Assembly (NCBI GenBank): GCA_050084515.1
Contig: CM114271.1
Span: 17,236,001 to 17,300,000 of the forward strand
DNA: 64,000 nucleotides
Source: Blasia pusilla
Lineage: Eukaryota
Direction: 5' to 3'
In this document: piece by piece, positions 1-64,000 of the stretch
Layout of the letters: each line of letters begins with the position of its first letter
How positions within the stretch are numbered: position 1 is the stretch's first letter
Made by a program: the position numbers and the translations under genes
Notes under the pieces: model-generated
The model's database searches: none
What the model was told of the DNA's origin: nothing
The model's input: only the letters and a program-made list of their open reading frames with translations

Positions 1-2194
1 GATTGGATAGCCATCTTCCTCTCTCTGTAGTGTTGGCTAAAAGCCTTAGGATAGCCTTTGGTGCACTTTTTGGTTTCTTTATCCATACATTGTGCATTTG
101 GATTTAATGGTCCACATGGCCCATGAACCATGCAATTAGCAATGAGAATACAACCTTGGATGGGTAGATTGATCAGGATCTCTGCTGAAATAATACGATC
201 ATAATCATGAGTGGCGTGGTTTATCCTCCCGCCCCTAATATAATAAGAACGTGCATATCGGCAAACCTTTTTTGGAATTCCACCACATGGATACATCCTG
301 CAACTCGTCCTAATATTTGCTTCTTGATGATAAGCCTTAATAACTCTTTCTTTTTCTTCTCAAAAACCCGTACAACCAAATCTGGTCGGTCTGCAACCGA
401 TTGACCAGGAATAAGGTTGATGTAATCTCCTCCCACTTTGGATTGCATGTCATAGTCAAAAAGTAGTCCGGCTTCCCCAAATGTCTTACAATTGCCATTG
501 CATCTTGATACACTTGATGCATGTGACGCGGTCCTCCAATAAAAGAAGAAGGTAATATAATGCGCCTCCCAACCTTGCGACTATCCACATCATGTCGATG
601 TATAGCATCCTTTACACCTTGATATAATTCAACCCTTAACTCCTTTTGATTCAAGCGAACCCATGATAATCGTTGCATCTCTACAGTTGCATAGAGGTCA
701 ACCATATATTCTTGAGTAAGTCGACCAAACCGCAATAACCGATTGTCATCTTCGCCTTCAATCCGCGTTTGAAGTCGAAAACATGCAAATTGCAAGGCCG
801 TAACACTCTTTGTTTTTCTTTCCACAAAAATATCACCATCAAGTCTTTCCTCATCCATCCAATCTTCTAAAGGATCCACGTGTCCCTCCTCATGAATAAT
901 CCGGCCCAATCGTTCGGATTCTCTATGACCTTCAATCCTCCCGAAGGGTATTCCACGATGCCAACCTGCTTCACCATAGGTAAATAGGAGAACAAAATGT
1001 AGTGGAATATATGCTTCATTGAGGTCTGATATACGCTTCACTCCTCCTCCATGTAGTCGTACAATTATATCACGATGGTCAACATGTTCACTACCATCAC
1101 CCGGCAATATAGCCGCAACCTCAGAAGCAATTGGTAAATTATAACGCTTAGCATCGAGACCTCTCTTACTTGCCTTGAGGATGATCTGCATATTAACGTC
1201 AATTGCTTCATATGCCATATGACGAAAGATCTTCACATATGGGTTGCATGCATGTAACATGTCTTGTAGCCCTCTCAAAATATCTGAATTAAGATCAGAA
1301 GATCTAGACATAACTCTTTCACGATTCTCCAATTCATTTGCGGTATCATGGATGTAGAGTTGAGCAAATTGGGGATGACCCCCCATATCAGGATGTAAGG
1401 ATCCAATAGAATGATAAATTCCGCCTTGGATCCTAAAGTGTCCGGTGCCACCTATTTGTTCATTTATATGCACTCCAGTAGAGGCAAGTTGAAGCGCAGA
1501 ATTGTAAGCTCTAGCATGTGTAAGAAAATGAAGACTTCTAGGACCAACACCTGAAATCAAGGATTTCAGGAATGGAGGAGACGATTTCAAGAGGGGTAAA
1601 TGTATTCTCCCATGGCCACAACACATGCCATATGGTGAGTCACTAATCTTTAAGCCTTTCACCCTTTCACATTTCCAATGTAAAGCATGACATGATGGGC
1701 ATATCTCTGTCATATAACCCAACGTATGACGACCGTTGACACGATTCAAACTCCTCTGTAATCTCAACTTCCTAATATCATTTTCTTGGAAATTTGGTCT
1801 TCTTGCAAGATTCAATAATGTATTTAATCTTACAATCCTATCAACAACAGACAACGGAGGAACCCTAGAAGCATTTTGTATAGTGGCACTTTCTGGAGAT
1901 AACACGACTCCATTAATGGTAGAAGACGAAGGATCTACTCTTGAGCTTGCTTCATCCTCGGAACGGGGAAGAGTTGAAGAATTCTCACCAACTTCATGTT
2001 GAAACAGAATCGGAAGAGTGATAGGTAACTTAACTTCTCGTATCACATAAGTAGTTGGCCTTGTCGTAGATATATTATCGACAACTTCATGGAGTGCACT
2101 ATCACGTAACTCCCGTCTTGGGGATGCAAGATATGTAGATGGAAGATGAAATTCTTGATTTTCTGCTACCATTCCTCCATCCTCATTAAAAGGC
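1..2194 (-). mobile_element. Helitron Rep (rolling-circle initiator) coding region, N-terminal/Rep part of RepHel; runs off the left window edge
   Basis: ORF 337..2172 has the Helitron Zn-finger (CPSCHALHW...CCGHG) and helitron_like_N blocks (AYNSALQLAS, FRIQGGIYHSIGSL, PQFAQLYIHD, LLFTYGEAGWH, GRLTQEYMVDLY, ILPSSFIGGPRHMHQVYQDAMAIVRHLGKPDYFLTMTCNPKW). It continues through frameshifts into DRPDLVVRVF, VEFQKR..MHVLI (HUH region) and MVHGPCG..NP...CTKGYPK. Confidence 0.93.
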
Positions 2195-3090
2195 CTGAGA
2201 AAACATCAATATATTACATAATACATACAAATTAAAAATGAACAATCAAAGATTTTCAGCGAGATGTAAAAATTTAGATATGTACCTCATGGATTGACTA
2301 CCAATGGCCATAAGCTCTTCATTTGGAGTAGTTAGAATACTTTGAACTACCATCGGAGTCTCAACTTGACCATGAAGCGCTTTCCTTCTTTTTCTATACT
2401 CTCGATAATAACACCTCTTTTTTCTTTCAAGGCTTCCATTTTATCAAAGACGAATAGCACGCGTTTTGGGCCTCGCCGCGTAGAACCTTCCAAAAATCAC
2501 GTACATCCACAGGATTCAATGGAATGGGAAGTCTGAAACAATACAGAAATGTTAAGAGTAATGCACTAACTTAAATGAAAAGTGAAGATTATGAAGGATA
2601 GAAATGTGGACATGTGAGGTGATTGTGAATTTTGCAAACTTACGTAGGAGATGTTTCGAGAAGGAATTCATCTTCAACAGGTGCTTTTTGAGCTAATATT
2701 TCCTTGCAACGTGCACGCCTTTTTTGTTGTGCGTTCACACGCATCAATTTTCGAAAGTCACGCAAATGTGTCGGATTTGATGGAATAGGAAGTCTATGCA
2801 AAAATTCCAAGATTGTATCATTTTAGTATATACATACAAAACATGGGATGTAAGGCGTATCGTGGAAATGGAAATAGGTTGCTTCCATTGTTCTCCCAAA
2901 GAAAGGTGCTTACATCGGAGAGGTGTTCTTCAATTCTTCGATTTGTCTCCCTGAATTTTGTTGTAGAATCGGTATATTTGTGATAACACCTAGCGGCCGT
3001 CTCTCCACGTTCAATAATAATCCACCTCCACTCGCCATCTACATTACACACCACAGAACTACTTAATAAAAATTGAAAAAGAAATTCCTG
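2195..3090 (-). other. Putative upstream exons/introns of the Helitron gene
   Basis: Minus-strand GT-AG introns at 2195-2285, 2533-2643 (GTAAGT donor) and 2794-2913 (GTAAGC donor). The 3' part of exon 2286-2532 (ILTTPNEELMAIGSQSMR) splices in frame to the main ORF, but that exon is not open throughout. Confidence 0.55.
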
Positions 3091-3470
3091 TAAAAAAGTC
3101 GAGAAAGACAATTATGAAAATTAAATTGGAAAAATGAGAAAAAAAGAGAAAGGGAATGAAAAAGTTTCGAGCTAGACATAAACCAATTTTAGAGGAAGAT
3201 TTTAAAAGAAAAATTTTAAGAGAAAGAGAATGAGAAATTAATGTTTTTTTCAAGAAGAAAAAAATGTAAAAGTTATTCTAGTTGGGATGTTTAAGAAAAA
3301 TTGGAAAAATATGAAAAAGGAAAATTTGGAAAAATAAGAAAAATTGGAAAAAGGAAATCCGGAAAAGAAAATCGGAAAAAAACCCTACCGAACCTATCCC
3401 AAACCTACAACCGAACCTATCCCGAACCACCCTACCCGCAGTTGGCGCCGCCTTTATAACTTGCCCAAAC

Positions 3471-3790
3471 CTAACGGTCCACTTTTTGTGGACCGTTAGA
3501 TCTGGGATCGGACGGACCGCGTCTGAGACGCGGCCGCTCTTCCCCCCTTCCCCCCAATTTAGGATCGTTCGATCCTAAATCGGACGGCCAGCGCCGAGAC
3601 GCGCCGCCCCACCCTTCTTCCCCCTCCCCCGATTTAGGATCGTTCGATCCTAAATCGGACGCCAGCGCGTCGAGACGCGCCGCCACCACCTTCCCCTTCC
3701 CTCCGATTTAGGATCGTTCGATCCTAAATCGGACGGCCAGCGTCTGAGACGCGTGGCGCCCCACCCCTTCCCCTTCCCACCTTCTAACGG
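3471..3790. repeat. Array of ~74-bp units, each with a perfect hairpin
   Basis: CCGATTTAGGATCG-TT-CGATCCTAAATCGG at 3629-3658 and 3703-3732, with a shorter version at 3557-3580. A separate hairpin CTAACGGTCCAC-TTTTT-GTGGACCGTTAG lies at 3471-3499. Confidence 0.9.
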
Positions 3791-4030
3791 GACGCAATTC
3801 TACACTGCCTCTCACGTTCATTTCCAAGACGATGCGTCCGTGGCTAAGCGCGTCTCGCCCCTCACGGGCTCCGCACTTCTCCTCACGGGCTCCGCTCTCA
3901 CACTTTTCCTCACGGGCTCCACTCTCTAGGTTTCGCCGAGAACGCGTTTCGCATAGTTGCCTCACGGGCTCCGCGACTCGCCTCACGGACTCTGTCTCAC
4001 ATGGGTCGCGTCTCTTGGTCAGGCAAAGCA

Positions 4031-4300
4031 GAGAGCTTTCTTCACCCGGTGTGCGTCTCTTGGTTGTGCAGAAGAGAGCTTTCTTCACACGGTGTGCGTA
4101 TCTTGGCCTGCGGCAGCAAGAGAGCTCTCTTCACACGGCTGTGCGTCTCTTAGCTGTGCAGCAGTAGAGCTTTCTTCACACGGCTGTGCGTATCTTGGCT
4201 GTGCAAGAGTAGAGCTCTCTTCACACGGCTGTGCATCTCTTGGCTGTGAAGCGAAGAGAGCTTTCTTCACACGGGTGTGCGTCTCTTTGGTCAGGCGCAC
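4031..4300. repeat. Tandem minisatellite, ~45-bp unit x6
   Basis: Repeated AGAGCT(T/C)TCTTCACACGG(C)TGTGCGT(C/A)TCTTGGCTGTGCA units. Confidence 0.9.
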
Positions 4301-4400
4301 TTCTCCTAGAGGACTCCGCTCTCACACGGTCTTTGGTCTTTCGCTCATTCTCCCGTCTTTGGTCTTTCGTGCATGGTTCAACCTCGCTCTAAGCCTCACG

Positions 4401-4497
4401 GGCTTTGCACTCACTTGGCTGTGCTACATTGCAGCAAACTTCTGCTCGGCTTTGCACTCACTTGGCTGTGCTACATTGCAGCAAACTTCTGCTCGGC
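4401..4497. repeat. 47-bp tandem duplication
   Basis: GGCTTTGCACTCACTTGGCTGTGCTACATTGCAGCAAACTTCTGCTC occurs twice in tandem. Confidence 0.9.
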
Positions 4498-5623
4498 GGT
4501 GTTTGCTCTCATCTGGCAGTGCCAGATGGTTCCCGAATTCTGTTGTTTGGCTGGCTAATTAGGGTCTTGTGCACATCGTTTGGCGCGTGCTTGTTTCGAC
4601 TTAGTAAGGAGTCTAGTCGATGGAACAGTTCTCCCACTTCCTCTCACGTCCACTTCCAAGACGATGCGTTCAAGTTGCGCCCACCCATAGACTATCTTAG
4701 TGGACTTAGTGATCTTAGTGATCTTGGTGCTGGTTTCGGTTTCTCTACATTTCTGATGCACTGCTCATTCGATGCAGTAAGGTGGGTTGGAGGTTGCACT
4801 AAGTTCTAAGGCAACCCCATCATAATCCGCGTTCTCCCAGAGTTGAGTACTGATAGCTAGGGATGGAGAGTCTTGTGACAGAAATTCATACATGGAATAC
4901 CACAACTTCCATAAGTCACTTGCTTCTCAAAGATAGCATTACATGTGTCATTTGCTACAGATGATTCATCTGCAAACTCTTTCTCTCCTAGCTACGAAGG
5001 TCATTTCCAAATATGTATATTAACTACCACACTCTTTCCAGTTGGTGCTCTCTGAGGTGAGATGTTCATCTCCTGTGGTTCTGAGACGCATGTAGTAGGT
5101 CTTTCTACCTGAATAGGGGATGTCCTATGGGACTCCGAATGCTGATGTTTTACATTGAGGTTCGGAGTTCTCTGCCGTTTCTTTGCAGATCCCCTCTCGT
5201 TCGTGTTGACCCTCTCGTTAGTGGTCCTTCTAAGTCGATATGGGGCGCGCGCTGGACTTCAATAAAACATCGTTTCCCAAACCTTCAATTGGTTGGGATG
5301 ATACCCTTGTCCGACAACGCAGGATGTGATCCAGCAGGAAGGGAATCCTTCACCCCACCTTCGAAGCCTGGAGCATGTTCGGGAGTGAGTCTCTCTCCCC
5401 AAGGACTGCTTGGAAAGTATGACTTTTTCCACATACTCAAACGTATGACTTCTTCTCCAGATATGGGGGACCACTTGGAGCTTTCCAATGGTTCAACATC
5501 AGGTGACTTTACACCATAATTCTTTTTGGATGCAGTGGCCTTAGACACACTCTTCCCCTTCCCTTGTATTGACTTGCGCGTTGTGACTCTGGTTGCCATG
5601 TTTGGTTGGATGTATTTCGTTTT

Positions 5624-6020
5624 GCACCTCTGTCCAAAATGGCCGCAGGTCTGAGAGTCGTGCTCAGGAGCCGCTGGACCCGAGCCGAGTAGAGCTTGTG
5701 CTAGGGAGTCGCTGGAGCTGCGGCCGGAGGTGGAGCAGGAGACAGAGTTGGAGTTGAGTCGAGTAGTATACGTGCTCGGGAGCCCCCAGAGCTGCAGCCG
5801 GAGGAGGAGCGGGAGACAGAGTTGGAGACAGAGCTCGAGCTGCAAACGAAGTCGGAGCTGTAGATGGGCTCACAGTTGAAGCTGATGAATCTAAACGATC
5901 CAGCACCACCTGGATCGTTTTTCACCTCTGTCCAAAATGGCCGCAGGCGTGAGAGCCACTAGAGCTGCAGTCGAAGTCGGAACTGTAGATGGGCTCACAG
6001 TTGAAGCTAATGAATCTAAA
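5624..6020. repeat. Local direct duplications
   Basis: CACCTCTGTCCAAAATGGCCGCAGG at ~5624 and ~5923; GAAGTCGGA.CTGTAGATGGGCTCACAGTTGAAGCT.ATGAATCTAAA at ~5848 and ~5973. Confidence 0.8.
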
Positions 6021-6307
6021 TCAGACAGCACCACCTGGTTTGTAGGGAGCATACAAACATTAGAATGTTACCGTGTGTATTGCTAGAGGTAGAGTTCGGA
6101 ATCTATTGCATCACTTGTAATAGCAATATTACCTCAGAATGCACGCCTTGAAAATAAAGCAAATAAATTGTCACCTGATTGTCGAGAGCACAGTGGAGAT
6201 TTTTAATCTCTGTGCAGCAATAAATACAATTCCCCCCAGGGGTTTGAAACTTGAACGCATCGTCTTGATCCCTCTCGCCGACTTTTCACTAACTGAGAGG
6301 TCATTTA

Positions 6308-6445
6308 CATCAACGGACGTCCCTTCTCCCGAAGATCTTAACTGTCCTAAGGACGAAAATTTGAAAACTCGCATAAAATCAACGGATGTCCCTTCTCCCG
6401 AAGATCTTAACTGTCCAAGGACAAAAATTTGACCACTCGCAATAA
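6308..6445. repeat. ~69-bp tandem duplication
   Basis: ATCAACGGA(C/T)GTCCCTTCTCCCGAAGATCTTAACTGTCC..GGAC.AAAATTTGA..ACTCGCA occurs twice. Confidence 0.85.
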
Positions 6446-8430
6446 AAGCCTGAAGCGGCGGATTACCCTAAACCCTAAAATGCACCATCCAACAGCTATG
6501 AGAAAACAGCCATCATAATCCAATCTGTCGATCCCTCATTTGGCGAAATGTCCACGTGGCAGAAGGCTGGTTGGTTGCACTTCTATAGTATAGATTAAAC
6601 ATACCACTCCAAACCAAACTGGCAATGAAAGGTCGAATTAGCCTTTCGGAAGTGCAGTACTCCATGTCCATCCGATGGATGGACATGGATGTACAACCAC
6701 TAACCCGAGTGGTCACTTAATTACGCTGCCCGCGAACGCCCATCTCGGAATCTATCCGGATCCAGGAGATTCGGCCGAAAGCCTGAACGACTTGCGAGTC
6801 TCTGAAGCCGAATAAAATCTACAAGACTCAAGAGCCGCGCGCGGTCCACAGTTCTCCCCGTCCTCGCCGATTTTCGACCCAAGAGCTGAGCTACTTCGCC
6901 CACCCAAATCCCAGCTGCGTCCTGCGCGCGGTTTTCTCTGTTTCCGAATGGCCTGAGAACGCAATGGTGATATGGATAAGCCTCGGAGTGATGTCACTCT
7001 GCTACGAAGAGAGCGACGCGAGAGATGGAGCTCCAGGAGGTCCGCCTTCCGAGGCGCCTAAAATCTAACAGATCGGCGCTAGCGTAGCGGACAGGGCTCA
7101 CACAAACGAGGATCATCGGACTACACCGAGCGATGGACCCCAAACGCAAAATCTCCCTGAGGGTCTTACACCCTCCCGCTCTGAAGCATCGACAGGAACT
7201 CATGGAAAGTGGTCCGACAGGACTCGAGACGTAGGGTGCCGCCTGTTTCCCGTCATTCATTCGCTAATGATCTGTGCCAAGCGGCTGTACAGTGTTTCCA
7301 GTTTCAGACCGCAACTGAATTGGACCTGGCAGTGCGCGTTATGTCGTGGAGCGTCGATTTGGAACTGGCGATATTCATGTGACCGGATATCGAAACCATT
7401 GAAAATTGCTTCGTGACGTCGGCCATGTTGGACTGTTGCGAGCAGCTCCATCAACGAACACTAATCTGACCCGGAAATCAAATCGAGGCCCGCTGGTACG
7501 TACGTGCCGCGTCCCACACAAATCTCCGAGTGGTCATCGATCCATCGAACCTGTCTACTGCAAACTTTCGGGGAAGTCTGGGTGTGCGCAGGCTCGTTGA
7601 AACCGAGGCAAACTTATTTTGTGGTGACCGCTGCCACAAGTCAATTATTGCGGAGATGTTCTTACGTGACTTTGGGTACATAAGCGATGGGATTTTTTTT
7701 TCGGAAATTCTCGCTTCACTCGTAACATCGTACAACAAAATGAAGTACAATTTTTTTCCCCTTCACAGTGATGTTGGGAGAAGGGGAGGAAGAGATTGTT
7801 ATAGGGTTTAGGTTTACTTTGTTACGATGGCATTCGTCTTCCTATCTTTAGAATTTCAATTTCTAAAAAAGCGAGAGTTGGGGATTTTCGACTTCCTCTA
7901 CCCTATAAAATCATCTCCCGAGTGTAATTGTGGCAAAATACATAACATCTCCAACTACACATCAACAAAAACTTGTTTGTAAATGTCTATATTACCACTC
8001 TCATGTTTGTATTTAATTTTATGACATTACTCTTTTTTAAATGATTGGGATAATTTTAGAATTGGCATAATTCATCATCAAATATTATTAGCTTTCCCTA
8101 AAATGGTATATATATATATATCTAGACATCATAGACATTTTTTAAAGTACCATTCATTATCTTAAATACATAAGTCTAAATAAGTCATAGGTGTGTAATC
8201 CCATGTAATAAACAAAGCATATTGGTTCAAACATGGATATTGTATTATTATTAACTAGCAATCTATAGATTATATAATAAAATAAATTAGAATTTATAGA
8301 AGAAATTAGAACTTGCAAGTAGAGGTAGAGAGTTCTTCATCCTTTTAGATATTTTCATTATTAAAGATTTATTTGCAAGTAGAATTCTCATAAAGATTTA
8401 AAAGATCTTGTGGCGTGAATGTGTTGTGTG

Positions 8431-46785: not shown

Positions 46786-49700
46786 TCACTTCCTGTGCAA
46801 TTCTAACTTGGACTTAGTTGCCAATGCACTCCGGAAGCATTGAGTGAGCTTTGTCTGAGTATGACTCTTCAGGGGAAGTGTAAAATCATCGGAGACATCC
46901 AACTCCTGCACATGAGAGCGTCATTCCAATTGCACTTATGAGCAGAATGCCAGTGCACAGGAAGTATGAAAAAGCAAATTACCTGCAATCACAGTCAGGA
47001 ATGTGTTTAGGATGCTGGTAATTCAGCACAGAACGGCACCTGTAAGAGATGATGAGCAGAGCGAAGTAAATCCATATCTGCATCAGATGCACAGCCTCGG
47101 GCATCTTGTGTGGTCAACCACATGAAAGCCGCTTGGAGAACACTACGAAGTCCATACCTGAGCACGACTTGACTCCTGTGCCATGCCACAATTATTCTCA
47201 GAAGAATTCCAAAACCATAGAGTCGAAACATTCAAGGATCAACATTCCCAAAGAAGTACACCCGTAAATCTTCCAGTGTGCAGTGGGTGAGGCATCTGAG
47301 GGAAACTCGCCCTATGGAAAAGTGGAGTACCTGAAACAAATAACTCCTTTGTTGTAAAGAGAAGGTGTAGAAGACCAGTTCACGGATCTGTGTTCAACAG
47401 GGCAGAAACAGCCAATGACTTAATGCTCATACTCGCAGTCTGATCCTTTCAATCATCTTTCCCGATCTAGAACTGTGCAATTACCATACGAATAGCAATT
47501 CTGCAAGCACACACAAAAATCATGTCTGAACAATCTGGAATCACAACACACGCCAGGAAATATTCCAGTGGTACCTGGCTCTCTCAACCATAACTTCATG
47601 GTTCAAGTCAGGGCAGTGAGTGGAAATCAAGTGTAACCACCCTTTGTACCGCTTCCATGATTTGTGCAGCAACTCCCACAATTCTTTTCCAATCACAGCC
47701 TCATTGGGGCTGACCTGTTTGACAGATCCCGACTTCCAATGTACCTCAAAGTCAGAACTACTCACTGCTAATGAGTATGTACTCTGGGGGTCTTCACACC
47801 AAGGTGTCAGAGAGCTAATGGCAATCGTGCCATCTTTGTTATCATCCAGAACTCCGTGAGCTTTGTTATCTTCAGTCAGGCAACCTGCTTCTTTCACCTT
47901 TCTCAGCATCATATTTGCTATGCAGTCTGCCCGTCCCATGAAAGCAACTCCAAAGGCCTCGTATAACAGGATCCAATCATGGCCTGTCAACTTTCTGATG
48001 AGAGAGTACATAACAGTTGAAGGGTGACGCGAATTTTGTAACCCGTTGTCATACCACTCATTCAAGGCACGACGAAGATAGTCATAGCCTTTCCTGAATA
48101 CGTGAAACCGATGCCGTACGTTTGCTGACATGGACAGGTTTTTCTTGAATACCCACCTGCTTACCCACCCAAATTAACCTGACAAGTTAGAGCTTACGGC
48201 CGAGTCGCGGCAGGGAGAAAAATAAGGACTTCAGTACTCTACTTATATCCCAGTGTCCCACCGACCATAGAAGAGCAACCGTGGATAGAGCCAAATGCAG
48301 GATTGGTACAAAACGTCAGAAACACGAACAACAAATGTGAGGAATCATTGAATCAACAATTCCCAGCTCAACCTTCACTAGGAAAGGAGAGCTTTCCATC
48401 ACCATCATTATAAATCCTGTGCGTTCGAATACAATAAAATCAACCGATCACAAAATCCAAAGCCAAAATAAAGGCGAATTACCCCCGTTATGGCATTTTG
48501 CACCTTCCGTTGAAATTACGTGCGAGCGAATATAGTCCACTTACCCAATAGCGAAATCCAAATATAAACGAAGGCCACTCAACCTGGGAAGTGCACTCCG
48601 TGTTGTTCCTCAAAAAACTCGCGTGCGTGCGAATACAATCTAGTTACAGAGTTGCAAATCCAAACCCAAAGAAAGACGAATCCACCTTGGCAGTACATTC
48701 GGAGAAGAGTCGCTCCCTAGCAGTCCACTGTCAGAAACGCCCTCCAGAAAATGCTCCCACAGATTATCTTGTACTCCTACAGCATACCACCGCTTACATG
48801 TCTGGAGAGAAGAACAAAGATCCTTGAGATCGAGCCTCTTCATAACGTGAAAAATTATCTCGTCCGGCATCTCACCGACTGGACTCGTATCCCCGAGGTC
48901 CTCTTCCGCACCCTTCCCCCGAAAACTCTCTTCACTGCCAGGAAATTCACCACTTGCCCGCGTCCGCTTAGCAGGTTGCGTGCAAAGTTCATGGTGTCTG
49001 GTGATTGAAGGATTCTTCTGCTTCACACCCTTACTCATATCTACTCCCCATCCCGGAAATGAGAATGTAAGCCCGGGAGGACCGAGGGACAGATGAGGCT
49101 CACGAACCCGCCGGGGTCCTTCGTTTCCCCTCCTCTCGGGTACAACATGGGGACTCTCCACCGTGGAGGTCGAACCTGTGGAATACTGCCTCTCCAATGA
49201 TGTCGCCACGGACGCATTGGATCGGCTGACACTCCCGAGTCTCCGGTTGCCAGAAACACTCTCATGAGCCGATTTCTCCCCAAAGCCAGAGCCCCTGCTG
49301 TAATGCGAAGAGGACAGACCTAAACATGTAGTTTCCTCATTCTGGAAATGAAACTGCCTCTCCGGTGACTGCGTTCTCCCCTCTTCGCTCAAGTTTCTAG
49401 TTCGCAGTCCTATTTCCACATCGCAGTGCGCCTGGGCTGTCACGATCTTTCCTCTCAGTTCGCCCAAACCTCTACCAACACGTTGGACTTGCTGACTTGA
49501 GAGCACAGTCGAGTGCCTGCTTTTCACTCCAGTGTCTCGTCCAGAGCTCACATCCTCACGGGGCCTTTCAAAAGCGGCGTCAAAATCGAGCGCTTGAGCG
49601 CGACCCCCAGCCTCCAGCCAACCTCGCCGCGGCACACTTCTCCTCTCCAACTCCTCACTGCAATCATCCTCGCCATGGCAGAGCGCCAATTGCAGTCGGC

Positions 49701-49950
49701 AATCCACGAATGGCACTTCACCAACCGCACCAGAAGGCGGCGAAGACCTCCTCCCAAAATTGAACCTCGACTCCACTCCTTTCGACCTTTCGCCCTCCGC
49801 ACTACGAGCCCCGGTGCTCGCTCGCTCGTGCTGCGCCAGGAGCGCGGCCTGGAACTGCCGCTCCAGATTGGCATCCAATTCATCATCATCCCCCCCGACA
49901 TTTTCCGCATGAATACTCCTCAGGTCCTCCTCCACCTCTTCCTCCTCCAT
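46786..49950 (-). CDS. F-box protein (~719 aa) with long low-complexity N-terminus and C-terminal cullin-repeat-like helical domain; exons 49950-48686, 48156-47575, 47387-47331, 47175-47040, 46905-46786
   Basis: F-box motif MPDEIIFHVMKRLDLKDLCSSLQTCKRWYAVGVQDNLW. Four GT-AG introns with consistent phases (2,2,2,0) give an open 2160-nt CDS ending in TGA at 46788-46786. The start could instead be the ATG at 50046. Confidence 0.82.
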
Positions 49951-50269
49951 CGTCACGCCCCTCTCCTCCACCCCTCCCGTTCTCACCAGCCACAGCGCGA
50001 GCGGTTTTCTTCTTCCTCGCGCAAACGCACCAATCTCTCCATCCACGTCCCGCGATCCCCACCTCTCCCTGCGCTTGCGTCTGATTTCCCACGCGCGACC
50101 TTCACCACCTCCACACCCGATCTGTTCTCAACCACCACTTCCTCTGCGCCACCCTCACCTCCTGCCTCTCTCTCTCGCAAACGCATCGCCCGTCGCCCAC
50201 CTTTCCCACACCATCGCTGCCAAATAGTGCACTCTCGTCTCTCCCGTCCTCTCCCTTCTCCGGACTCCA

Positions 50270-54650: not shown

Positions 54651-54899
54651 ATGAGATGAACTTATGGAGACAAGCAAAAAGATCGTCTTTTAGATTGGAA
54701 GTGTTGAATCTTGACGATCTAGATGAATAAGTGAGAATGTGCTCTCAATTGGGAGAGACTTTTTGATGAGATATGCCCATGCCATTTGAGAACTTGGCTC
54801 TTACACAACATTGAGATACATTGAGATTGTGACTATTCAAAAAAGAGGATATCGATCGACGATCTGGAGGTTCAATCCTCGATTCAATTAGGGAAATTA

Positions 54900-55500
54900 T
54901 ATGGCTATTTGTAACAGACCACTTAACAACTGTAACATTGGTTGTTACTACATGGCCGACCCATAATTTTGAGGATGCGTACGTTGTTGCCATCTGACTT
55001 TCTCTTGCTAGAGGGATGTGATAACATGATTTGGGAGGATTAAGTATATCACACCATCTTCCGTGCATTTTCAATGAATCTCATTTTGCAATTTGAGATT
55101 CATTGTAGTTATATCTTCAAGGCTATGGTGTATGTTTTGTGGATCCATCGTAGATACGACCACCATGCTAATCAATGATGGGTATTTGAGAGGATGACAC
55201 ATGACATGTTTGACCCCACCTCGCATTCAGGGTCTCCAAAGACAATGTATGCATCCTAGATGTATCTAGGATAGGAAGCATTGGATTTGGATTTATTTGA
55301 GTGACATGGATAACGAAAAGAAAATTAAAAATGGGGCTACAAGAGCATCTAAACTCTTTACACCTAGTTTCACAAAGACATATGTCAATGTACGTAAGAA
55401 TAGATGGATATCTAGAGTTAGAAAGACCTAACCACCAATCAATGGTGCAATTTGAGACCTTTTGATGTATGGTCATGTACGTATGCTTAATTTTTAGGTT
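54900..55500 (+). mobile_element. Decayed 3' end of a gypsy element: integrase C-terminal region, PHD finger and 3' non-coding region
   Basis: ILRMRTLLPSDFLLLEGCD, then CMFCGS...MLINDGYLRG*HMTCLTPP...MHPRC (55129-55263). 55295-55470 is homologous to 57315-57485. Confidence 0.7.
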
Positions 55501-56559: not shown

Positions 56560-57597
56560 GGGAGCAAGAAGTCGTTCCTGGCACTACTTGCTTCTGATGT
56601 TATGATGTTGGGAGGTACGCCCGCCGAGGTTTTTCGGCTCACCGCTACGCTATATGAGTGCGGAGTTGGTGTTCTTGCATCACACTCAGGGGTGATTGCA
56701 GAGGAGGTGATGGACCTGCCCTTGGATCCTATGCTTGGGCCGTCCACGTTACATTCATGGTAGGCTGCGGCTGCTAGGATGGCGGAGATGCAGTCTAGAC
56801 CCTTGATAGAGCGTGCCATGGCTGCTCTTGATGTTGTGTTGGTGGATAACCATGGAGAGGTCTTCCACTTGGTGAGTCCAAGACGTAGAGTTTTTAGTCT
56901 GTAGCGCATCTTGTTGGATTCAGAAGCACAATCCCTGATATGGGGGAAAGCGGATTTCAGAGATTTGGAGCGTTTTCCATTTCAGATACAAACATCCTTG
57001 GGTGGAGCGAGTACTGCACAGTATATCACCCGATAGGAGGTCGTTGTATGGTTTGGAAGGACCATGTGCGAACTGTGCGCCATGTCACCTTCTAAACATT
57101 AACGGTATAGTTGATCCAAGCTTAGCAGAAGTTCCTGCAAGCTTACGATGTATGTTGTGTGGTTCCGCTTGTGGTGCATCCACTATGCTAGTCTATGATG
57201 GGTGTTCAAGAGGATGGCATATGGCATGTTTGACACCACCTCTCACTAGGGTTTCTCAAGGACGATTGATGTATCCCAGATGTACAGAGAGTAGGTATTT
57301 CTAGATTCTGACTTGTGTCTGTGACATGGATGACAAGAAGGGGACTAACGATGGGGCCATATGAGCACCCAGATTTTTTTCTCTTAGCGTTCTAAAGATC
57401 TATGTCATAGCATATAAGGATAGATGACTATCTGGAGTTAGAGGGACCTCACCACCAGCTAGGGGGACGATTGGAGATATTTTGGTACTTCTCGCCTCTA
57501 TGTTTGGATGCTATGAGTTAGCATGGGATCGTGCTTGTTTGTGTGTGTGTTCGATGACAACCATGTATGTTGTGTAGCGATGTGTATGCGCACGACA
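56560..57597 (+). mobile_element. Internally deleted gypsy derivative: pre-protease/protease fragment joined to integrase C-terminus plus PHD finger
   Basis: 56590-57010 is collinear with 60790-61390 (SW*AAAARM, LVDNHGEVFHLVSP, ILLDSEAQSLIWGKA, FQIQTSLGGA). It is followed by NCAPCHL and PHD CMLCG..MLVYDGCSRGWHMACLTPPLTRVSQGRLMYPRC (57149-57283), and ends with an LTR-end-like ...GCACGACA. Confidence 0.8.
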
Positions 57598-57599
57598 AC

Positions 57600-58513
57600 T
57601 ATCACGTCTTTTAGGATAGATCGGTGAGATCTAGTAGAGCGCCTTTGTGAGTAGTGGAGGACAGGCTCATGAGGTCGAGGATGACCTATTGAGGCCCCGA
57701 AAAATCTGAGAGAGCAGGTTTCCCATTTGTTTCGGCTCATTTGGAGCCATATTGATGAACTTACTATTTTGGGTAAGTACCATTTTGAGTATATGGTCGA
57801 GTTTCTATTTTTTGAAGTGGCCCCCTGGCCTAGGGAAAAGACCAAATAAAAGGATTAGAAGATGTAATCTCCGTAAATGTGATCCAATTGTCCTTGACCT
57901 CCTACATTAGATCAAGAGCCAAGGATGTGACTTGGGAACATAGGTTACCAGGGAGAGAGCTTGGGAGAGGGGAGGGGTATACCTCAAGGAAAGAGAGTTT
58001 GAGAGCTCATTCTCTCTTTGTTGAACCTCTTGGCATGAGGCGGCGCAGTTATGGTCCCTTGCCTTGTGTCATGACCATACAGATTATGTCGTAGAGTATA
58101 GTGTGCTAGTAGAGGCCGTAACTTATGTAGGGCCATAATTTCTAGGTAGAGATGCGGTTTCATACATGGAGTTGGGGGTTATTCCGTTGAGGGTGACTTT
58201 TCCAGTAGGGCCTGCTCTTAGGTTGGAGGCCATAGTGTGGAGTGCACTCAAAGAACAGTTAGTTCTTTGAGTTGAGCCTGTTGCGTTGGGAGTTAGCCTT
58301 GGTAGTGAGTAGAGCTCTTGGCTATGGTGGTTCCCGTAAGCTTCGACCTGGATTCTCCCATCGTGGAGTGGGTTTGGCTCGATTGTATATGATTCTATAC
58401 GTGTTTTATGACAGTAGGTCTTTCATGGATTTCACTCAAAGAACTGGAGTAGATCGATGGTAGCTTCGATCGTGGATCAGTAGAATCTGGTTAGGGCTGA
58501 TTGTGTGATGACA
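57600..58513 (+). mobile_element. Probable 5' LTR of the MTase-bearing gypsy element
   Basis: Starts TATCACGTC (cf. TGTCACATC of the solo LTR at 59178), ends ...GATGACA just before the gag-like region, and is non-coding. Boundaries cannot be verified because the 3' LTR is outside the window. Confidence 0.45.
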
Positions 58514-58554
58514 GGTTAGGTTGCCCACACCCATAGCTAGTAGAGCTAGAAAAG

Positions 58555-60555
58555 TACATGACATCGACGTCACTTGGTTACTTAGTGGTGGTGCCGCATC
58601 GACGTTGGTCATCACGGAGTTGTCTGGTGGTGTGGTTTGGGACCGTGGTGCGGACAGTGGTGGTTTTACACGAAGTGGATTGAGGTATCGGCTACCTTTT
58701 CCACTTATGACGGTTGATGAAGAAGAGGACGAGGGTGTTCCAAACACCAAGTCTTCTACAATGTTATCGAGTGTTGCAGCTCCATTGAATTGGGACATGG
58801 ACGGGATATATGGGGCCATGAAGGGCCCATGACGATACTCGGGTGCAGTGGGCACCATTGAGTTGGAGGACTTCATTCAGAAGTTTGATACGTGATGTGA
58901 TATGTAGTTGTTGCGGAACGCCACATTATTTACACCCTTCTTGGCTTGGAAGGTGTTGTTTCAGCACTTGGAGGGACCACCCATGGACGATTACCATGAG
59001 TTTAGGAAGGACCATGTTGCTGAGATTGAGGCGTGGAGACAATATTGGTCTCCAGGTTATGTGTCTATTACTCATGGTGGTATTGGTAGTAGTGCTCCTA
59101 CTATGCCAGCCAGCCCGACGTTGAGTGGTACGAGTACGAGCCGGAGTGGGGATACTAGTGGAGGTACCAGTGGGGATTGTCACATCTGAGTAGCCGATAG
59201 GCCGAGATCTATCATGGATAGGGCATAGGAGCCAGCAGACTATCTTGAGTGTAACTTTGTCCCACAATGTCGGATGAGGTTGAGAATAGGACCATTGTGT
59301 AAGGAACGTCGTTTTTGACAACTTTCATGTTGAGGTCTTTTACAGCCGGGTGACTTGTTGAACAGGTCACCTGCCCCTGGTAACCTGTACGCGTAGGTTA
59401 CCAAGGGGTAGGGCTATTTTTAGGGGAAGAGCCTTTTGGCTCTTCTCAACCCTATATAAGAGAGGAAGATGGCTTTCCTAAGCCATCTTTCTCATGTTGG
59501 GCCGTTGGAGCACCTCCCTTGTATGTGTGTGAGATAGGACTAGGGTGCTAGCGTCCGGATTCCTTGATAGGTGGACGAGGCTTGATATGCCGATGTAGAT
59601 TGAGGAGTGGAGTTTTAGGCCGGGTGTGCCGTTTTTACTACTCTTTATTTTTGTTGTGTGATCTCCATGTATATGTATGAGTTGATTTTTGTACATGTGT
59701 GGATCGACTCGTGTGTGGGGAAGATCGGTGTTGTGTGGTGTAGATGTAACCAACGATGTATGTTGTGTAGCGATATGTATGCGTACGACAGGGTTCTAGT
59801 GGAGGGGTACTAGTGCCCCACCATCATTCAGCCCGGTTGCAGAGTTCTTCAAGAGGTTGAAGAAGAACTATCAGGGAGTGAAGACAGAGAAGTTGAGGAG
59901 TCTTCAGGAATTTGAGCGAAAGACTGGTGAGAGTCTTCGTGAGGCATACATTCGTATGCAACGCTTGATTTCAATTACCCAGGGTGTGACTGAGGCTCGG
60001 ACAGTCCAGTTTTGGTATGGGATCTTGGATAGAGAGTTGCGTTGTAGGGTACGTGATGCTACTCTTATGAGTGATGATTCACCCACATTGACCCATGTGT
60101 TTGCTCTATCTGAGAAGATTGAGCTTAACATGATGGAGGAGAGAGTGGTGACATCCGCATTCAGTAGGGATACAACTACTACTTCTCGTGTTCAACAGTC
60201 CACCTCACAGTCTCGTAGTAGTGGTGGTGGTAGTAGTAGTGGGAGTCGTGGGGGATACACCCGACCTCAGTTAGGTCCTAGAGGGACACTTGCGCAGAGA
60301 CCACTGCCTTCATTTGCTGCCCCACAGCAAGGACAGTCATGTTGGACATGTGGAGGTGATTATGTTAGGAGGTTTTGTCCCCAAGAGGATGGGAGATGGA
60401 CTTTGGAGGATGGGCCTCAGTCGGCCCCAACTCAGTGTGATCATTGCGGGAGACCGGGTCATCCTCGAGAGCGTTGCTTTGATCTTCATCCAGAGTTGAG
60501 ATCCGGTGACTACCCCTACCACTACGACAGAGTCATCTATGGCTGCCAGGATTGA
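58555..60555 (+). pseudogene. gag (interrupted by a solo LTR, with in-frame stops)
   Basis: YSGAVGTIELEDFIQKFDT*CDM*LLRN...LFQHLEGPPMDDY before the insertion; FFKRLKKNYQG...GESLREAYIRMQRLI and Zn knuckles CWTCGGDYVRRFC / CDHCGRPGHPRERC after it. Confidence 0.8.
59178..59790 (+). mobile_element. Solo LTR (613 bp) inserted in gag
   Basis: TGTCACATC...GTACGACA termini; flanks GGGAT / GGGTT (4/5); TATA-like CCTATATAAG at ~59451. Gag-like coding sequence lies on both sides. Confidence 0.8.
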
Positions 60556-61250
60556 GCAATTGGAGCAGAGGTTGGCTACTATGGTTGGTATCCAGCATAG
60601 AGCAGGTTCGGGAGCAAGGGCTTCCACCTCTTATGGAGGGGATGATCTCTCTTATATGGCGAGTGCAGCACAGGTTAAAGCATCAGCTGTAGTTACGAGA
60701 GGAGTCATTCGAGCGTCAGAGCCACGTGGTGCTACTGTGGAGTTGGACCCACAGAGGTCCTGGAGGCAGGCTAGGCTTCCCCATTCATTCTTGTTGTCTG
60801 AGGTGCTTAGGACTCCATCCATGGTTCCTACGCAGCCTATTGAGCCTACAGCGGGGACTGCGGCATCTACATCGCGTGTAGTAGATACGGATGCAGCATC
60901 CAGTGCATTATTGCGGATGGCAACTTCAGTGTTGGGATCCCCATTATTTTGAGCCACGGAGCTGATGGCTTTAGGAGTTGACTTAGCTCCTGTATTTCAA
61001 CTAGCAGCCACGTTGTGTGAACGTGGGAGTGTTACTGGTACACGTGGTGAGGTGGATGAGGGTGTTGCGGTGGAGTGACCCCCCTATGTCAGGTGTAGCA
61101 TTGAGTACCAGTGCTACTTGGCAAGCAGCAGCGGCGAAGATGGATGCATTACGAGCCCGGCCAGCCATTGATTGTGAGAGGCTTACACATGGTGTATGTA
61201 TGTTGGACAACCACATTGGGATATTCTGATTGGTGAGTCCTACATGACAG

Positions 61251-61600
61251 GTGTATAGACCAGATAGAGTCTTGTTAGACTCTAGTGCCCAACCTTTGAT
61301 GTTGGGAAAGGCGGAATGTATTGGTTTGGGTATTCGAAGGTCAGAGCTTGAGCCTTGCCCATTCCACATTCAAACATCACTTGGAGGAGCCAATGATAGG
61401 TCTCAATTCATGACACGGGAGAAGTTGTCTGTACAATTGAGACTAGATCATGCGACTGATAGCTCCCGGTTGGGAGTACCTGCAGTGGTCATATCAGCCG
61501 GGTCGTATGATGTACTAGTTGGAGGAGCAGTATTGTACCCGATGGGTTTTCAGATGGACTAGTGGACTGAGACAGCGTCTTATAGACCTGGTTGGCAGTT
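61251..61600 (+). pseudogene. Retrotransposon aspartic protease
   Basis: VLLDSSAQPLMLG (D at 61278; cf. DSG) ... YDVLVGGAVLYPMGF. Confidence 0.8.
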
Positions 61601-62002
61601 CGGGGATGGACATATGAGCCAAGTTCTTGTGAGATTTATTTATGGGGCTCGACTAGGAGGGTCTTCTCCAACAGTATTAGCATCTGTGGCTAGTTTTAGT
61701 GGAGTAGTCACTTGGCCAAGAGACTTTTTGGAGGGTAATCTTTATGCTGTGGATTCTCCTGTGCATGAGGAGGTAGAGGAGGTCCCTAGTTTTGCAGCAG
61801 TGGCATCCTCATCGTTGGATGTGCCACTTTGGAGTTCAGGCGGTGCACTTCGATAGGAGGATGATCGCCTAGTTAGGAGGCTTGGTGTGAGGCTGTTATA
61901 CCTCACGAGGAAGAGGAGGCCCCACGACGGACCCCTACTTCTGGTCCAGTTGGGTTATCCCCTTTGGATACTACACCCATTGTATGGCAGTATTCGCCGG
62001 AG

Positions 62003-62960
62003 GGCATTTGTGTGTTAGATCTCTTTGGTGGGATTAGCACTGGTTTGGCTGCAGTGTTGTAGGCCGGTATTCTTATGCGGAGATACGTGTATGTGGAGCG
62101 AGATGAGACGGCCCACAGAGTCTCATCCCGACATATTGGTCAGTTGATGCGGAGATATCCTGAGTTGTTGCCGCCATTAGCTATTCGTGGGTACCAGCGT
62201 GCTTTGCCGTCACACATTGCATTGTTGGGGGCGCAGGACCTTGAGAGGGTTGGTCTTGTGGATTTGGTGATTTCTGGATGGCCATGTCAGGGTCATACAC
62301 GTGCAGGTCGTGGTGAGGGATTACACGACCCTAGGTCTCGATTTGTTTTGGGAGATGTTACGGGTGTTACGACATCTTCAGGTTCATCACACACGTGCTC
62401 TAGCTTACATTCTGGAGAATGTTCCATTGTTGGATGACACTCGGACCCGGATGATGGCGAGTGTTCATAAGGTGTAGTGTTGGATTGGACCAGCAATGTT
62501 TTTGGATGCAGCGCGAGTTGGCTCGCGTGCACATCATCCACGTTTGTGGTGGACAAACTTGTTGCCTAGGGAGGTTGTACGTCGAGCATATAATGCAGTG
62601 CAGTGGGATCCTTGCCTTACAGTGGATAGTATCTTGGATATTGGGCGACTTTCTCAGGTGGTGAGGGTTATTGATCGATCACCCATGGCAATGGTGAACC
62701 GTGTGGGCCAGCCTAGGATGACACTACCCACATTTGTGAGTTTTCCCTTGTCACATGCCTACAGGGAAGGTGGTCCCGAGCTTGTATGGGATTCTCATGT
62801 GCGACAGTTGGTGGAGCCTAACGCTGATGAGAGAGAGCGTGCGATGGGATTTGCTACTGGTGTGACAACGGTTGCTTCCATTTCTGAGGCTTCACGACGT
62901 CATGTGTTGGGTCAGGCCATGGACCTGAATTGTTTGACCTGGATTTTGAGTCTTGGTATG
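62003..62960 (+). pseudogene. C5 cytosine DNA methyltransferase domain (DNMT3-like motif order) within pol
   Basis: Motif I VLDLFGGISTG (62012-62044), II YVYVERD, IV DLVISGWPCQG (PCQ 62282-62290), VI YILENV (62415-62423), VIII AHHPRLWWTNL, IX ERERAMGF, X RRHVLGQAMD. Stops at 62060 and 62475 and one frameshift near 62345. Confidence 0.9.
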
Positions 62961-63340
62961 GCCGAGTTGCGTCGACTTCGGACTATGTCTATGGGTCTTC
63001 CACCCCTTGTGATGAGCTCGATGACTACCGGGATGGTAGAGACATCGGCTGAGGGCGAAGAGAATAGTATTTTGCATCCTTGGAGTAAATGGGATGTAAT
63101 GGATGGGCATGTGGAGTTGGTTGCTCATGCTGGTGGAGGAGTTATTTGCTCAGATGATGGTGTAGCTAAGGGTGTACCATCTTGTGAGAAGGTTGCATAG
63201 CAGCCAATGGCGTCGTCCTCTCCCTCTAGTGTGCCAGTGGAGGAGACTTGGGAGCCATTACTTGGGCCCAAGCTTACGGGAGGTGAGAAACGACGCTTGA
63301 CACAGTTCCTACGTGCTTATAGGAGTTTTTTTCCTTTAGC

Positions 63341-64000
63341 ATGAAGGAGTTGGATGCTTTGGTTGGACCCCATATACGGATTGATTTGGCTAGTGATACG
63401 CCAATCTTTCGTCGTCCCTACCGATATAGTGATATGGAGAGGGATCTGATTCAGAGTAGGACATTGGACCTTTTAGAGGCTGGATTAGTGGAGTTGTCGC
63501 ATGGAGAGTATGCATCAGCCACTGTCATGCCTGCTAAAAAGGATGTGCAAGAAACTACACGGATAGCCGGATGTGTGGAGATTACCGTCCTATCAATCGG
63601 CAGACCAAGGCCGATAGGTATGCCATGCTCATACCTGAGGATATCTTTGATGTGGTGGGACAGGCAAAGATTTTCAGTACTTTGGATCTTCGAGCAGGAT
63701 ACCATCAATTGCTGATTCGAGAGAGTGACAAGGCCAAGACAACATTTTGGGGTGTCAACTCTCATGGCAAAGATTGTTTGTACCAGTGGAAATTTGTACC
63801 CTTTGGGTTGAAGAATGCACATGCCGAGTTTTAGAGAGTGATGGACAGGATCCTAGCAGGGTTGGATTTTGTTCGGTATTACATTGATGATATCTTGGTG
63901 TTCAATAACACGGTGGAGGAGCATCAGATACATTTGCAGATTGTGTTTGAGCGGTTGAAAGCTCATGGTCTACGTTTGCATCCAGGAAAGTGTAAGTTCT
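63341..64000 (+). pseudogene. Ty3/gypsy reverse transcriptase (frameshift and stop; truncated by window edge)
   Basis: PIFRRPYRYS, YASATVMPAKKD, RMCGDYRPIN, FSTLDLRAGYHQ, VPFGLKNA, YIDDILVF (63880-63891 for YIDD), GLRLHPGKCKF. Confidence 0.95.

Follow-up and report, generated by a model that had tools for sequence, protein, structure and literature searches.

At one end of a 64,000-nucleotide stretch of Blasia pusilla DNA (GenBank assembly GCA_050084515.1, contig CM114271.1, positions 17,236,001 to 17,300,000 of the forward strand; this whole stretch is called the window below) the remains of a retrotransposon can be read together with a C5 cytosine methyltransferase (MTase). What kind of MTase is it, and does it belong to the element or is it a host gene fragment picked up by a single copy? 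An earlier note, made from the letters alone, had described a DNMT3-like MTase with linear motif order, built without introns into the pol region of a Ty3/gypsy element between protease (PR) and reverse transcriptase (RT), in a copy that is now inactivated. Most of this description holds; the parts that had to be changed are given where they arise. The window from ∼58.2 to 64.0 kb (+ strand) very probably represents the 5′ two-thirds of a dead gypsy-type retrotransposon copy, a member of a green-lineage family with a fixed DNMT3-type MTase domain.

The C5 MTase motifs I to X follow one another on the + strand in linear, non-permuted order, from motif I at 62018 to motif X ending at 62924. They comprise motif I (DLFGGISTG, 62018-62044), motif IV with P-C-Q (62282-62290), motif VI with E-N-V (62415-62423), motif VIII (RAHHPRLWWTNL, 62526-62561), motif IX (ERERAMGF, 62829-62852) and motif X (LGQAMD, 62907-62924), all on the + strand; the alignment with DNMT3A spans motifs I-VIII and then IX-X. 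In this copy the domain is broken by a TAG at 62060, one extra base (a +1 frameshift) at 62342-62345 and a TAG at 62475. The separate pieces alone gave a sub-threshold match to Pfam DNA_methylase (E = 0.095). When the domain was read through, with X at TAG 62060, TAG 62475 and the frameshift at 62345, the hidden Markov model PF00145 matched it with 27.8 bits (cut-off 22; E = 2.1e-6); intact relatives score 35-54 bits.

Compared with solved structures, the read-through sequence was matched best by the catalytic domains of DNMT3A/3B/3C (E from 2e-8 to 4e-6); DRM followed with 2.6e-4 to 0.03, and bacterial M.HhaI/HaeIII and DNMT2 stayed above 0.01. A five-sequence profile against PDB gave a similar ranking: DNMT3A/B/C ∼1e-18 (70 bits), DRM 2e-8, M.HhaI/HaeIII ∼6e-7, DNMT2 ∼1e-5; at ≤0.01 there was no DNMT1 chain. 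The intact MTase domain of a metagenomic relative (locus L030; 38-row alignment), modelled with AlphaFold, reached a predicted local distance difference test (pLDDT) score of 95.7 and a predicted template modelling (pTM) score of 0.93. In a fold search of this model against PDB, every match listed (∼30 rows, ranks 1-50) was DNMT3A/B/C, with E ∼1e-20 and a template modelling score of ∼0.8 on the target. The domain is a DNMT3-type C5 cytosine MTase, nearer to DNMT3 than to DNMT1, DNMT2, DRM or the bacterial enzymes. It has no PWWP or ADD partner, and its motifs VIII and IX stand farther apart than those of DNMT3A.

We mapped the element by stop-to-stop frames and by tblastn with proteins of relatives (numbers with P denote proteins, numbers with L metagenome loci). 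The parts are as follows.

58189-58445 (+): A-type terminal repeat (5′ repeat), by blastn to both A copies of each of L001 and L013; start uncertain, perhaps from ∼57598
58797 (ATG) to ∼60555 (+): gag, by tblastn to Marchantia P0002 residues 1-357, 68-76% identity
59178-59791 (+): ∼0.6 kb insertion within gag, foreign to the ancestral gene; 716 bp of the window against ∼30 aa in relatives
61134-61613 (+): aspartic protease region, by tblastn with the L030 PR segment and P0002/P0009; a linker is next
61976-62972 (+): DNMT3-type C5 MTase domain with motifs I-X in linear order, by Pfam PF00145, solved-structure matches and alignment
63198-63206 (+): conserved in-frame stop and its context, TAG CAG CCA; it ends Gag-PR-MTase, and RT onward is in the same frame
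63249-64000, past the window end (+): start of the second reading frame and RT, with RVT_1 matches of E 3.5e-7 and 1e-10 and tblastn to P0009 at 61-82% identity

The MTase is thus collinear with PR and RT, without introns, and its place between PR-like and RT sequence is far beyond chance. A short tail after the MTase ends at TAG 63198-63200. The Pfam match of gag to Retrotrans_gag is weak; two CCHC-type knuckles lie at ∼60360-60510, their strings visible in the open reading frame (ORF) at 59800-60555. The active-site string of the protease is D-S-S in the window vs D-S-G in relatives, whose protease scores as Pfam Asp_protease_2.

Is the MTase a property of more than one copy? With the C-terminal 310 residues as query, a word-indexed search returned 26 homologs, 35-76% identical to it: 15 from Marchantia polymorpha, one from Calypogeia fissa, two from Sphagnum and eight others. 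PF00145 was precomputed for 20 of the 26, some also with RVT_1 and RT_RNaseH. In Pfam terms the full-length homologs read gag(CCHC)-PR-MTase, with RT and RNase H (RH) or integrase (IN) beyond, and Closterium proteins have the same PR-MTase-RT order as those of Marchantia, Calypogeia and Sphagnum. Among the named hosts, those nearest to the window are land plants, namely liverworts and peat moss; further named relatives come from Scenedesmus sp. (annotated ‘pol’), Haematococcus lacustris and Closterium spp. No Klebsormidium protein was returned by name from the homolog searches, and a search of a protein atlas gave weak, uninformative leads only.

In metagenome contigs 599 stretches matched; 352 of them passed confirmation, and 80 were retained. 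In 75 of these 80 loci the MTase has PR upstream and/or RT downstream; four are too short, one has gag directly before the MTase and none shows another domain order. An intact copy is present in locus L030, a contig of 9.3 kb. Its ORF1 (976-5082, 1369 aa) contains gag, Asp_protease_2 and DNA_methylase (51 bits), and its ORF2 (5086-8226, 1047 aa), in the same frame after a single TAG, contains RVT_1, RT_RNaseH, Integrase_H2C2, rve and a C-terminal PHD finger. The family order is Gag(CCHC)-PR-MTase, stop, RT-RNaseH-IN-PHD. In it the Ty3/gypsy order PR-RT-RH-IN is present, with the MTase inserted after PR. Of the earlier placement in pol, the position between PR and RT stands; the assignment to pol does not, as the MTase belongs to a first frame Gag-PR-MTase with a stop before RT-RH-IN-PHD.

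An exhaustive HMMER search, with a profile built from five natural uninterrupted MTase domains of metagenome loci, returned 11,959 clusters at E ≤ 1e-3, 2,053 at ≤1e-10 and 439 at ≤1e-30. All of the best 150 matches (at least 228 bits each) are transposon polyproteins, most of them long, and there is no host DNMT3 among these 150.

Relatives place the MTase at two positions. Among 249 proteins (the window read-through was excluded), 196 had a near-full MTase domain: 48 carry it between PR and RT and 113 between RNase H and integrase; 35 are untyped. The PR-MTase-RT order occurs in named streptophytes (Marchantia, Calypogeia and Closterium). The order RNase H-MTase-integrase occurs in the named chlorophytes Haematococcus lacustris (P0231) and Scenedesmus sp. 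(P0126/P0230), and also in P0039, P0045, P0059 and others. We built an unrooted FastTree tree, with no outgroup, of 167 MTase domains (161 typed proteins, five loci and one natural piece of the window, leaving out the 35 untyped and 53 partial proteins). A single split (support 0.97) sorts 166 of the 167 tips by architecture, and the window piece falls together with L025 and L001 (support 0.82).

These data bear directly on a one-off capture of a host DNMT3 gene fragment by a single copy, which had been raised in the earlier note as an a priori possibility and has that alone in its favor. The same architecture is present in every informative relative, the MTase tree follows element architecture, introns are absent and L030 ORF1 runs uninterrupted from gag through the MTase. 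We consider such a capture exceedingly improbable; the domain order in the 80 metagenome loci rules it out. The MTase is a trait of the whole family.

Selection on the MTase was estimated as dN/dS by the Nei-Gojobori method, with the following results.

L043 vs L030 (both intact, from different metagenomes), MTase: dN/dS 0.14, dS 0.26
L043 vs L030, PR and linker: dN/dS 0.21
L043 vs L030, tail after the MTase: dN/dS 0.60
L043 vs L030, ORF2 start and RT: dN/dS 0.30
window vs L001, MTase: dN/dS 0.20, dS 0.7-0.8, 75% amino-acid identity
window vs L025, MTase: dN/dS 0.22, dS 0.7-0.8, 75% amino-acid identity
L025 vs L001 (a close pair), MTase: dN/dS 0.93, dS 0.06

The comparison among copies that the earlier note had in mind thus gives 0.14-0.22, apart from one close pair. 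Purifying selection acts on the MTase at least as strongly as on PR and RT.

The window copy itself is dead and incapable of any of the activities proposed below, as the earlier note had recognized. Measured against Marchantia proteins it has 11 in-frame stops and seven frame changes, the junction stop between MTase and RT not being counted, in addition to the ∼0.6 kb insertion. The stops are at 58830, 58893 and 58905 in gag, which the foreign insertion also breaks, at 60950, at 61227, 61245 and 61560 in the protease, at 61854, at 62060 and 62475 in the MTase and at 63832 in the RT region, where the frame also changes near 63330 and 63551. The leader between the A repeat and gag (58445-58607) is ∼160 bp long vs ∼950 bp in L001, L009, L013, L022 and L023; a part of it, possibly with the primer-binding site, seems to have been deleted (it is ∼0.8-0.95 kb shorter than in these five relatives). 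A 12-base methionine-tRNA primer-binding motif gave no match in the window with one mismatch allowed.

Family members other than this copy are transcribed. Three RNA runs and one DNA run with the same species label were mapped on 58700-64000 at a likeness of at least 88%. Between 1,916 and 2,571 RNA reads per run were placed (from 6-12% of each run), covering 30 of 30 bins. The first mate lies almost always on the minus strand (e.g. 66 vs 0 at 61886-62062), which indicates sense RNA, given usual stranded libraries. Likeness to the window is at least 99% in only 33-37 reads per run and 90-99% in most, and the main source of the RNA is therefore sister copies. The extra base of the window at 62342 is absent from most reads (33/45, 27/38 and 41/57). 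At the remaining frame breaks (61079, 61873/4, 63325/7 and 63549/52), too, one-base differences from the window occur in many reads. From the DNA run 117,942 contig pieces matched; this depth is not a copy number, but it shows a very high abundance of the family there. There are many sister copies, and sense-strand RNA is made from them.

At the gag insertion, some RNA reads jump 630-655 bases with ends that are not those of an intron. Other reads join 59791 back to 59178, as expected of a B-to-A junction of the repeats described next. The insertion is probably a solo A-B repeat unit of a related element.

Terminal repeats were sought in the 27 loci with a PHD match; eight do not have enough 3′ sequence, leaving 19 assessable. 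In 12 of the 19 a direct repeat B (113-198 nt) flanks a segment A (284-342 nt) just 3′ of the coding region; two are ambiguous and five show nothing. A second copy of A stands before gag in all four loci that reach far enough upstream (L013, L047, L065 and L078). L001 and L022 have the pair of A copies, and their sequences end too early for the second B. The repeat search found no A/B repeats in L005 and L011 and no repeats in L030. The ends of the relatives are A-internal-B-A-B, not two plain long terminal repeats. The gypsy assignment of the earlier note therefore stands for gag(CCHC)-PR-RT in the window and for RNase H and integrase in relatives, but not for the ends. In the window, A-like and B-like segments occur upstream of gag only, its 3′ end lying beyond the window; by blastn the A-type repeat at 58189-58445 also matches L009, L022 and L023 (all five loci 70-78% over 145-268 nt).

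The A-internal-B-A-B layout is also that of KnitGypsy-Dnmt3 from the charophyte Klebsormidium nitens. The main text of PMC5890265 (de Mendoza et al. 2018) describes this element as an intronless, non-permuted DNMT3-type MTase in a gypsy-type polyprotein, with repeats in the layout of DIRS retrotransposons (A-coding-B-A-B) and Ka/Ks < 0.2. Given the shared layout, we file the Blasia element with this published kind.

How would the enzyme be produced? A stop at the homologous place between MTase and RT, followed by CAR, is found in 18 of the 24 clade-1 loci with an adjacent MTase-RT pair, plus the window; the other six of the 24 are frame-shifted there and unreadable by the method. The intact L030 and L043 have TAG CAG TTA and the window has TAG CAG CCA; both fit CAR-YYA. 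In 16 loci TAG or TAA is followed by CAA CCC or CAA CTC, the UAA variant occurring sometimes, in decayed copies. UAG-CAR-YYA is the classical leaky-stop context of tobamoviruses. Because the conserved UAG context resembles this leaky stop, a readthrough model suggests itself: Gag-PR-MTase would be the main product, and RT-RH-IN-PHD would be made by occasional readthrough of the UAG. The MTase would then be present in Gag-like amounts and travel with the particle. Cleavage by PR would release it, and the released enzyme would methylate newly made cDNA, or DNA at or around a new insertion, with the PHD finger at the integrase C-terminus reading chromatin for targeting.

Extended to its full breadth, the proposal is that bryophytes including Marchantia polymorpha host a high-copy, transcribed lineage; that it makes a leaky-stop Gag-PR-MTase in Gag-like amounts, active on DNA and methylating its own cDNA or insertion sites, or host DNA in trans; that it is ancient in the green lineage; and that the MTase was relocated a single time between the chlorophyte and streptophyte branches. 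As a whole this is tentative, and we hold it to be possible but doubtful. If it were true, transposon-encoded writers would be a real contributor to land-plant methylomes.

Several results weigh against our reading of the element or of its expression. Only the 5′ part of the element lies in the window, so that its 3′ repeats, RNase H, integrase and PHD are out of view. An uninterrupted MTase domain is present in only 5 of the 66 loci with an MTase match, and the dN/dS of the L025-L001 pair is high, which is what one expects if copies decay neutrally once inserted. In moss-type copies the context is CAA-CCC, unlike the textbook CAR-YYA, and P0236 and P0245 are single uninterrupted polyproteins. 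A second clade (L047-L080, 30-34% identity to Marchantia P0002) has the same domain order without the conserved stop behind the MTase: five of its loci are without any same-frame stop after the MTase, and ∼10 have a stop (TAG; TAA in L065) immediately before it, which puts the enzyme on either side of the frame boundary depending on lineage. The readthrough step is deduced from sequence. Finally, the KnitGypsy-Dnmt3 domain expressed in yeast gave no detectable methylation, a result that the authors call inconclusive in the main text of PMC5890265.

The features of the junction also suit another explanation, namely that the stop is a true terminator and that RT-RH-IN-PHD is expressed by splicing, by reinitiation, from a subgenomic RNA or in trans. 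Marchantia and Sphagnum gene models (P0003, P0009 and P0013) splice over the stop region, and most moss-type copies have CAA-CCC there instead of CAR-YYA. On the other side, the two parts always share one frame, interrupted by a single stop at one and the same position, in lineages whose synonymous divergence is saturated; RNA depth is continuous over the junction (bins 62948-63478), and no conserved intron signals were seen, although no search aimed at them was made. A true terminator appears quite unlikely to us, and occasional readthrough is the explanation we keep.

The yeast result, in turn, fits a DNMT3-fold module without a DNA-methylating role, serving for DNA or RNA binding, as a scaffold, as an RNA methyltransferase or as a decoy against host methylation. 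So do a motif X of the form G-Q-A-M-D vs the usual G-N/R-S type, the longer stretch from motif VIII to IX, and E in place of P before the catalytic Cys in one distant clade (L047). The yeast test does not discriminate, however, since human DNMT3B failed in it as well (main text of PMC5890265). The Cys-Gln of motif IV, Glu-Asn of motif VI, Arg of motif VIII and most of the Gly-rich motif I are invariant in five lineages that are 44-47% identical; only L047 among the five has the motif IV Pro and the motif VI Val altered (ENT, not ENV). The catalytic Cys and the motif VI Glu are invariant across 38 sequences, and the dN/dS of the MTase between the two intact loci is low. We therefore regard a module that does not methylate DNA as unlikely, and take the domain to be, probably, a working cytosine MTase in intact copies.

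Upstream of the element the window contains related remains, and two unrelated open frames lie farther away.

57407-57604 (+): B-like repeat segment behind a PHD fragment, by blastn to the PHD-to-A2 stretch of L001 (68%, 206 nt) and to the B2 region of L013 (75%, 63 nt)
56584-57048 (+): protease-like sequence, 40% identical to Marchantia P0002, abutting the following part and forming with it a second upstream fragment
57071-57292 (+): PHD finger (Pfam PHD, 25.8 bits)
54698-55263 (+): integrase-tail/PHD fragment of a related element
48640-50127 (-): open frame of 495 aa that scores 44 bits for a Pfam F-box domain and probably belongs to a host gene
337-2205 (-): another transposon, seen as an open frame of 622 aa that scores 124 bits for the Pfam Helitron helicase-like N-terminal domain

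The fragment at 56584-57292 is without MTase, RT, RNase H and integrase, and is followed by the B-like and A-like repeats and then by gag of the studied element. This suggests that an internally deleted sister copy lies head-to-tail upstream, the pair sharing one A repeat. The B-like segment most likely forms part of the 3′ end of that sister copy; its last 40 nt are found again at 59751-59790. Self-comparison of the window showed no second full copy within it.

Compared with contigs of the DNA run over 58700-64000, the window differs by A>G at 86 and T>C at 57 places vs G>A at 41 and C>T at 33. A or T in the window against G or C in the contigs is thus about twice as common as the reverse, and several stops of the window copy are such changes. 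The bias is as expected of deamination of methylated cytosines in a silenced copy.

What is new here, and why does it matter? The earlier note had suspected an under-described lineage of land plants. The nearest named hosts are indeed liverworts and peat moss, but the kind of element has been published as KnitGypsy-Dnmt3. The main text of PMC5890265 is without Marchantia, liverworts or a PHD finger, and our search of full-text literature found no bryophyte DNMT-bearing retrotransposons, which figures and supplements of PMC5890265 and PMC12344493 may list. The occurrence in bryophytes, including a model species, and the conserved stop that puts the enzyme in the Gag-PR frame appear to be unreported. 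The same appears to hold for the PHD finger that these elements carry behind integrase, for the alternative position in chlorophytes and for the transcription of sister copies.

The function of transposon-encoded cytosine MTases was left open in 2018, according to the main text of PMC5890265. Until now this question had been linked to organisms in which manipulation is difficult; with named copies in the genetically tractable Marchantia polymorpha, it becomes testable whether the element methylates itself, its target or the host. UniRef names P0001 and P0022 ‘DNA (cytosine-5-)-methyltransferase’, as if they were host genes, and DNMT gene counts in bryophytes that use such annotation may be inflated. 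The MTase before a conserved stop and its second position in chlorophytes also bear on how retroelements gain host chromatin modules and set their dosage.

KnitGypsy-Dnmt3 is the closest of the known systems by description. The two share an intronless MTase in a gypsy-type polyprotein, A-internal-B-A-B repeats (here in relatives) and purifying selection (<0.2 vs 0.14-0.22). They differ in host, K. nitens vs bryophyte-like hosts and Closterium. The precedent of retrotransposons carrying DNMTs, which the earlier note had cited, is borne out by the main text of PMC5890265 for dinoflagellates as well as for K. nitens. The dinoflagellate SymbioDIRS-Dnmt3 and SymbioLINE-Dnmt encode DNMTs, and the DIRS type shares the A-coding-B-A-B layout; their backbones are of tyrosine-recombinase (DIRS) and LINE type, in contrast to PR-RT-RH-DDE integrase here, and the authors of PMC5890265 regard them as separate acquisitions.

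With the host enzymes DNMT3A/3B/3C and plant DNMT3/DRM, the element MTase shares the fold, the motif order I-X and motifs IX-X (ERxxGF ... LLGxxxx). It differs from host DNMT3 in the missing PWWP and ADD domains, in the longer insert between motifs VIII and IX and in being embedded in Gag-PR-...-RT. DRM is circularly permuted, whereas the element MTase is not, and DRM matches it at 2e-8 vs 1e-18 for DNMT3.

The chlorophyte relatives have a homologous MTase (∼35-40% identity), gypsy-type domains and a PHD finger after integrase, but their MTase stands between RNase H and integrase instead of between PR and RT. A leaky UAG is used in gammaretrovirus gag-pol as well as in tobamoviruses; like these, the element has a single in-frame UAG between two long frames, with CAR-YYA in the window, L030 and L043. 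Here the stop lies after PR and MTase instead of between gag and pro-pol, and readthrough is a prediction. Chromoviruses and the PHD-bearing retrotransposons mentioned in the text of PMC6673714 resemble the element in having a chromatin-reader module at the integrase C-terminus. Chromoviruses use a chromodomain vs the PHD finger here, and the present family joins a reader and a chromatin ‘writer’ in one element.

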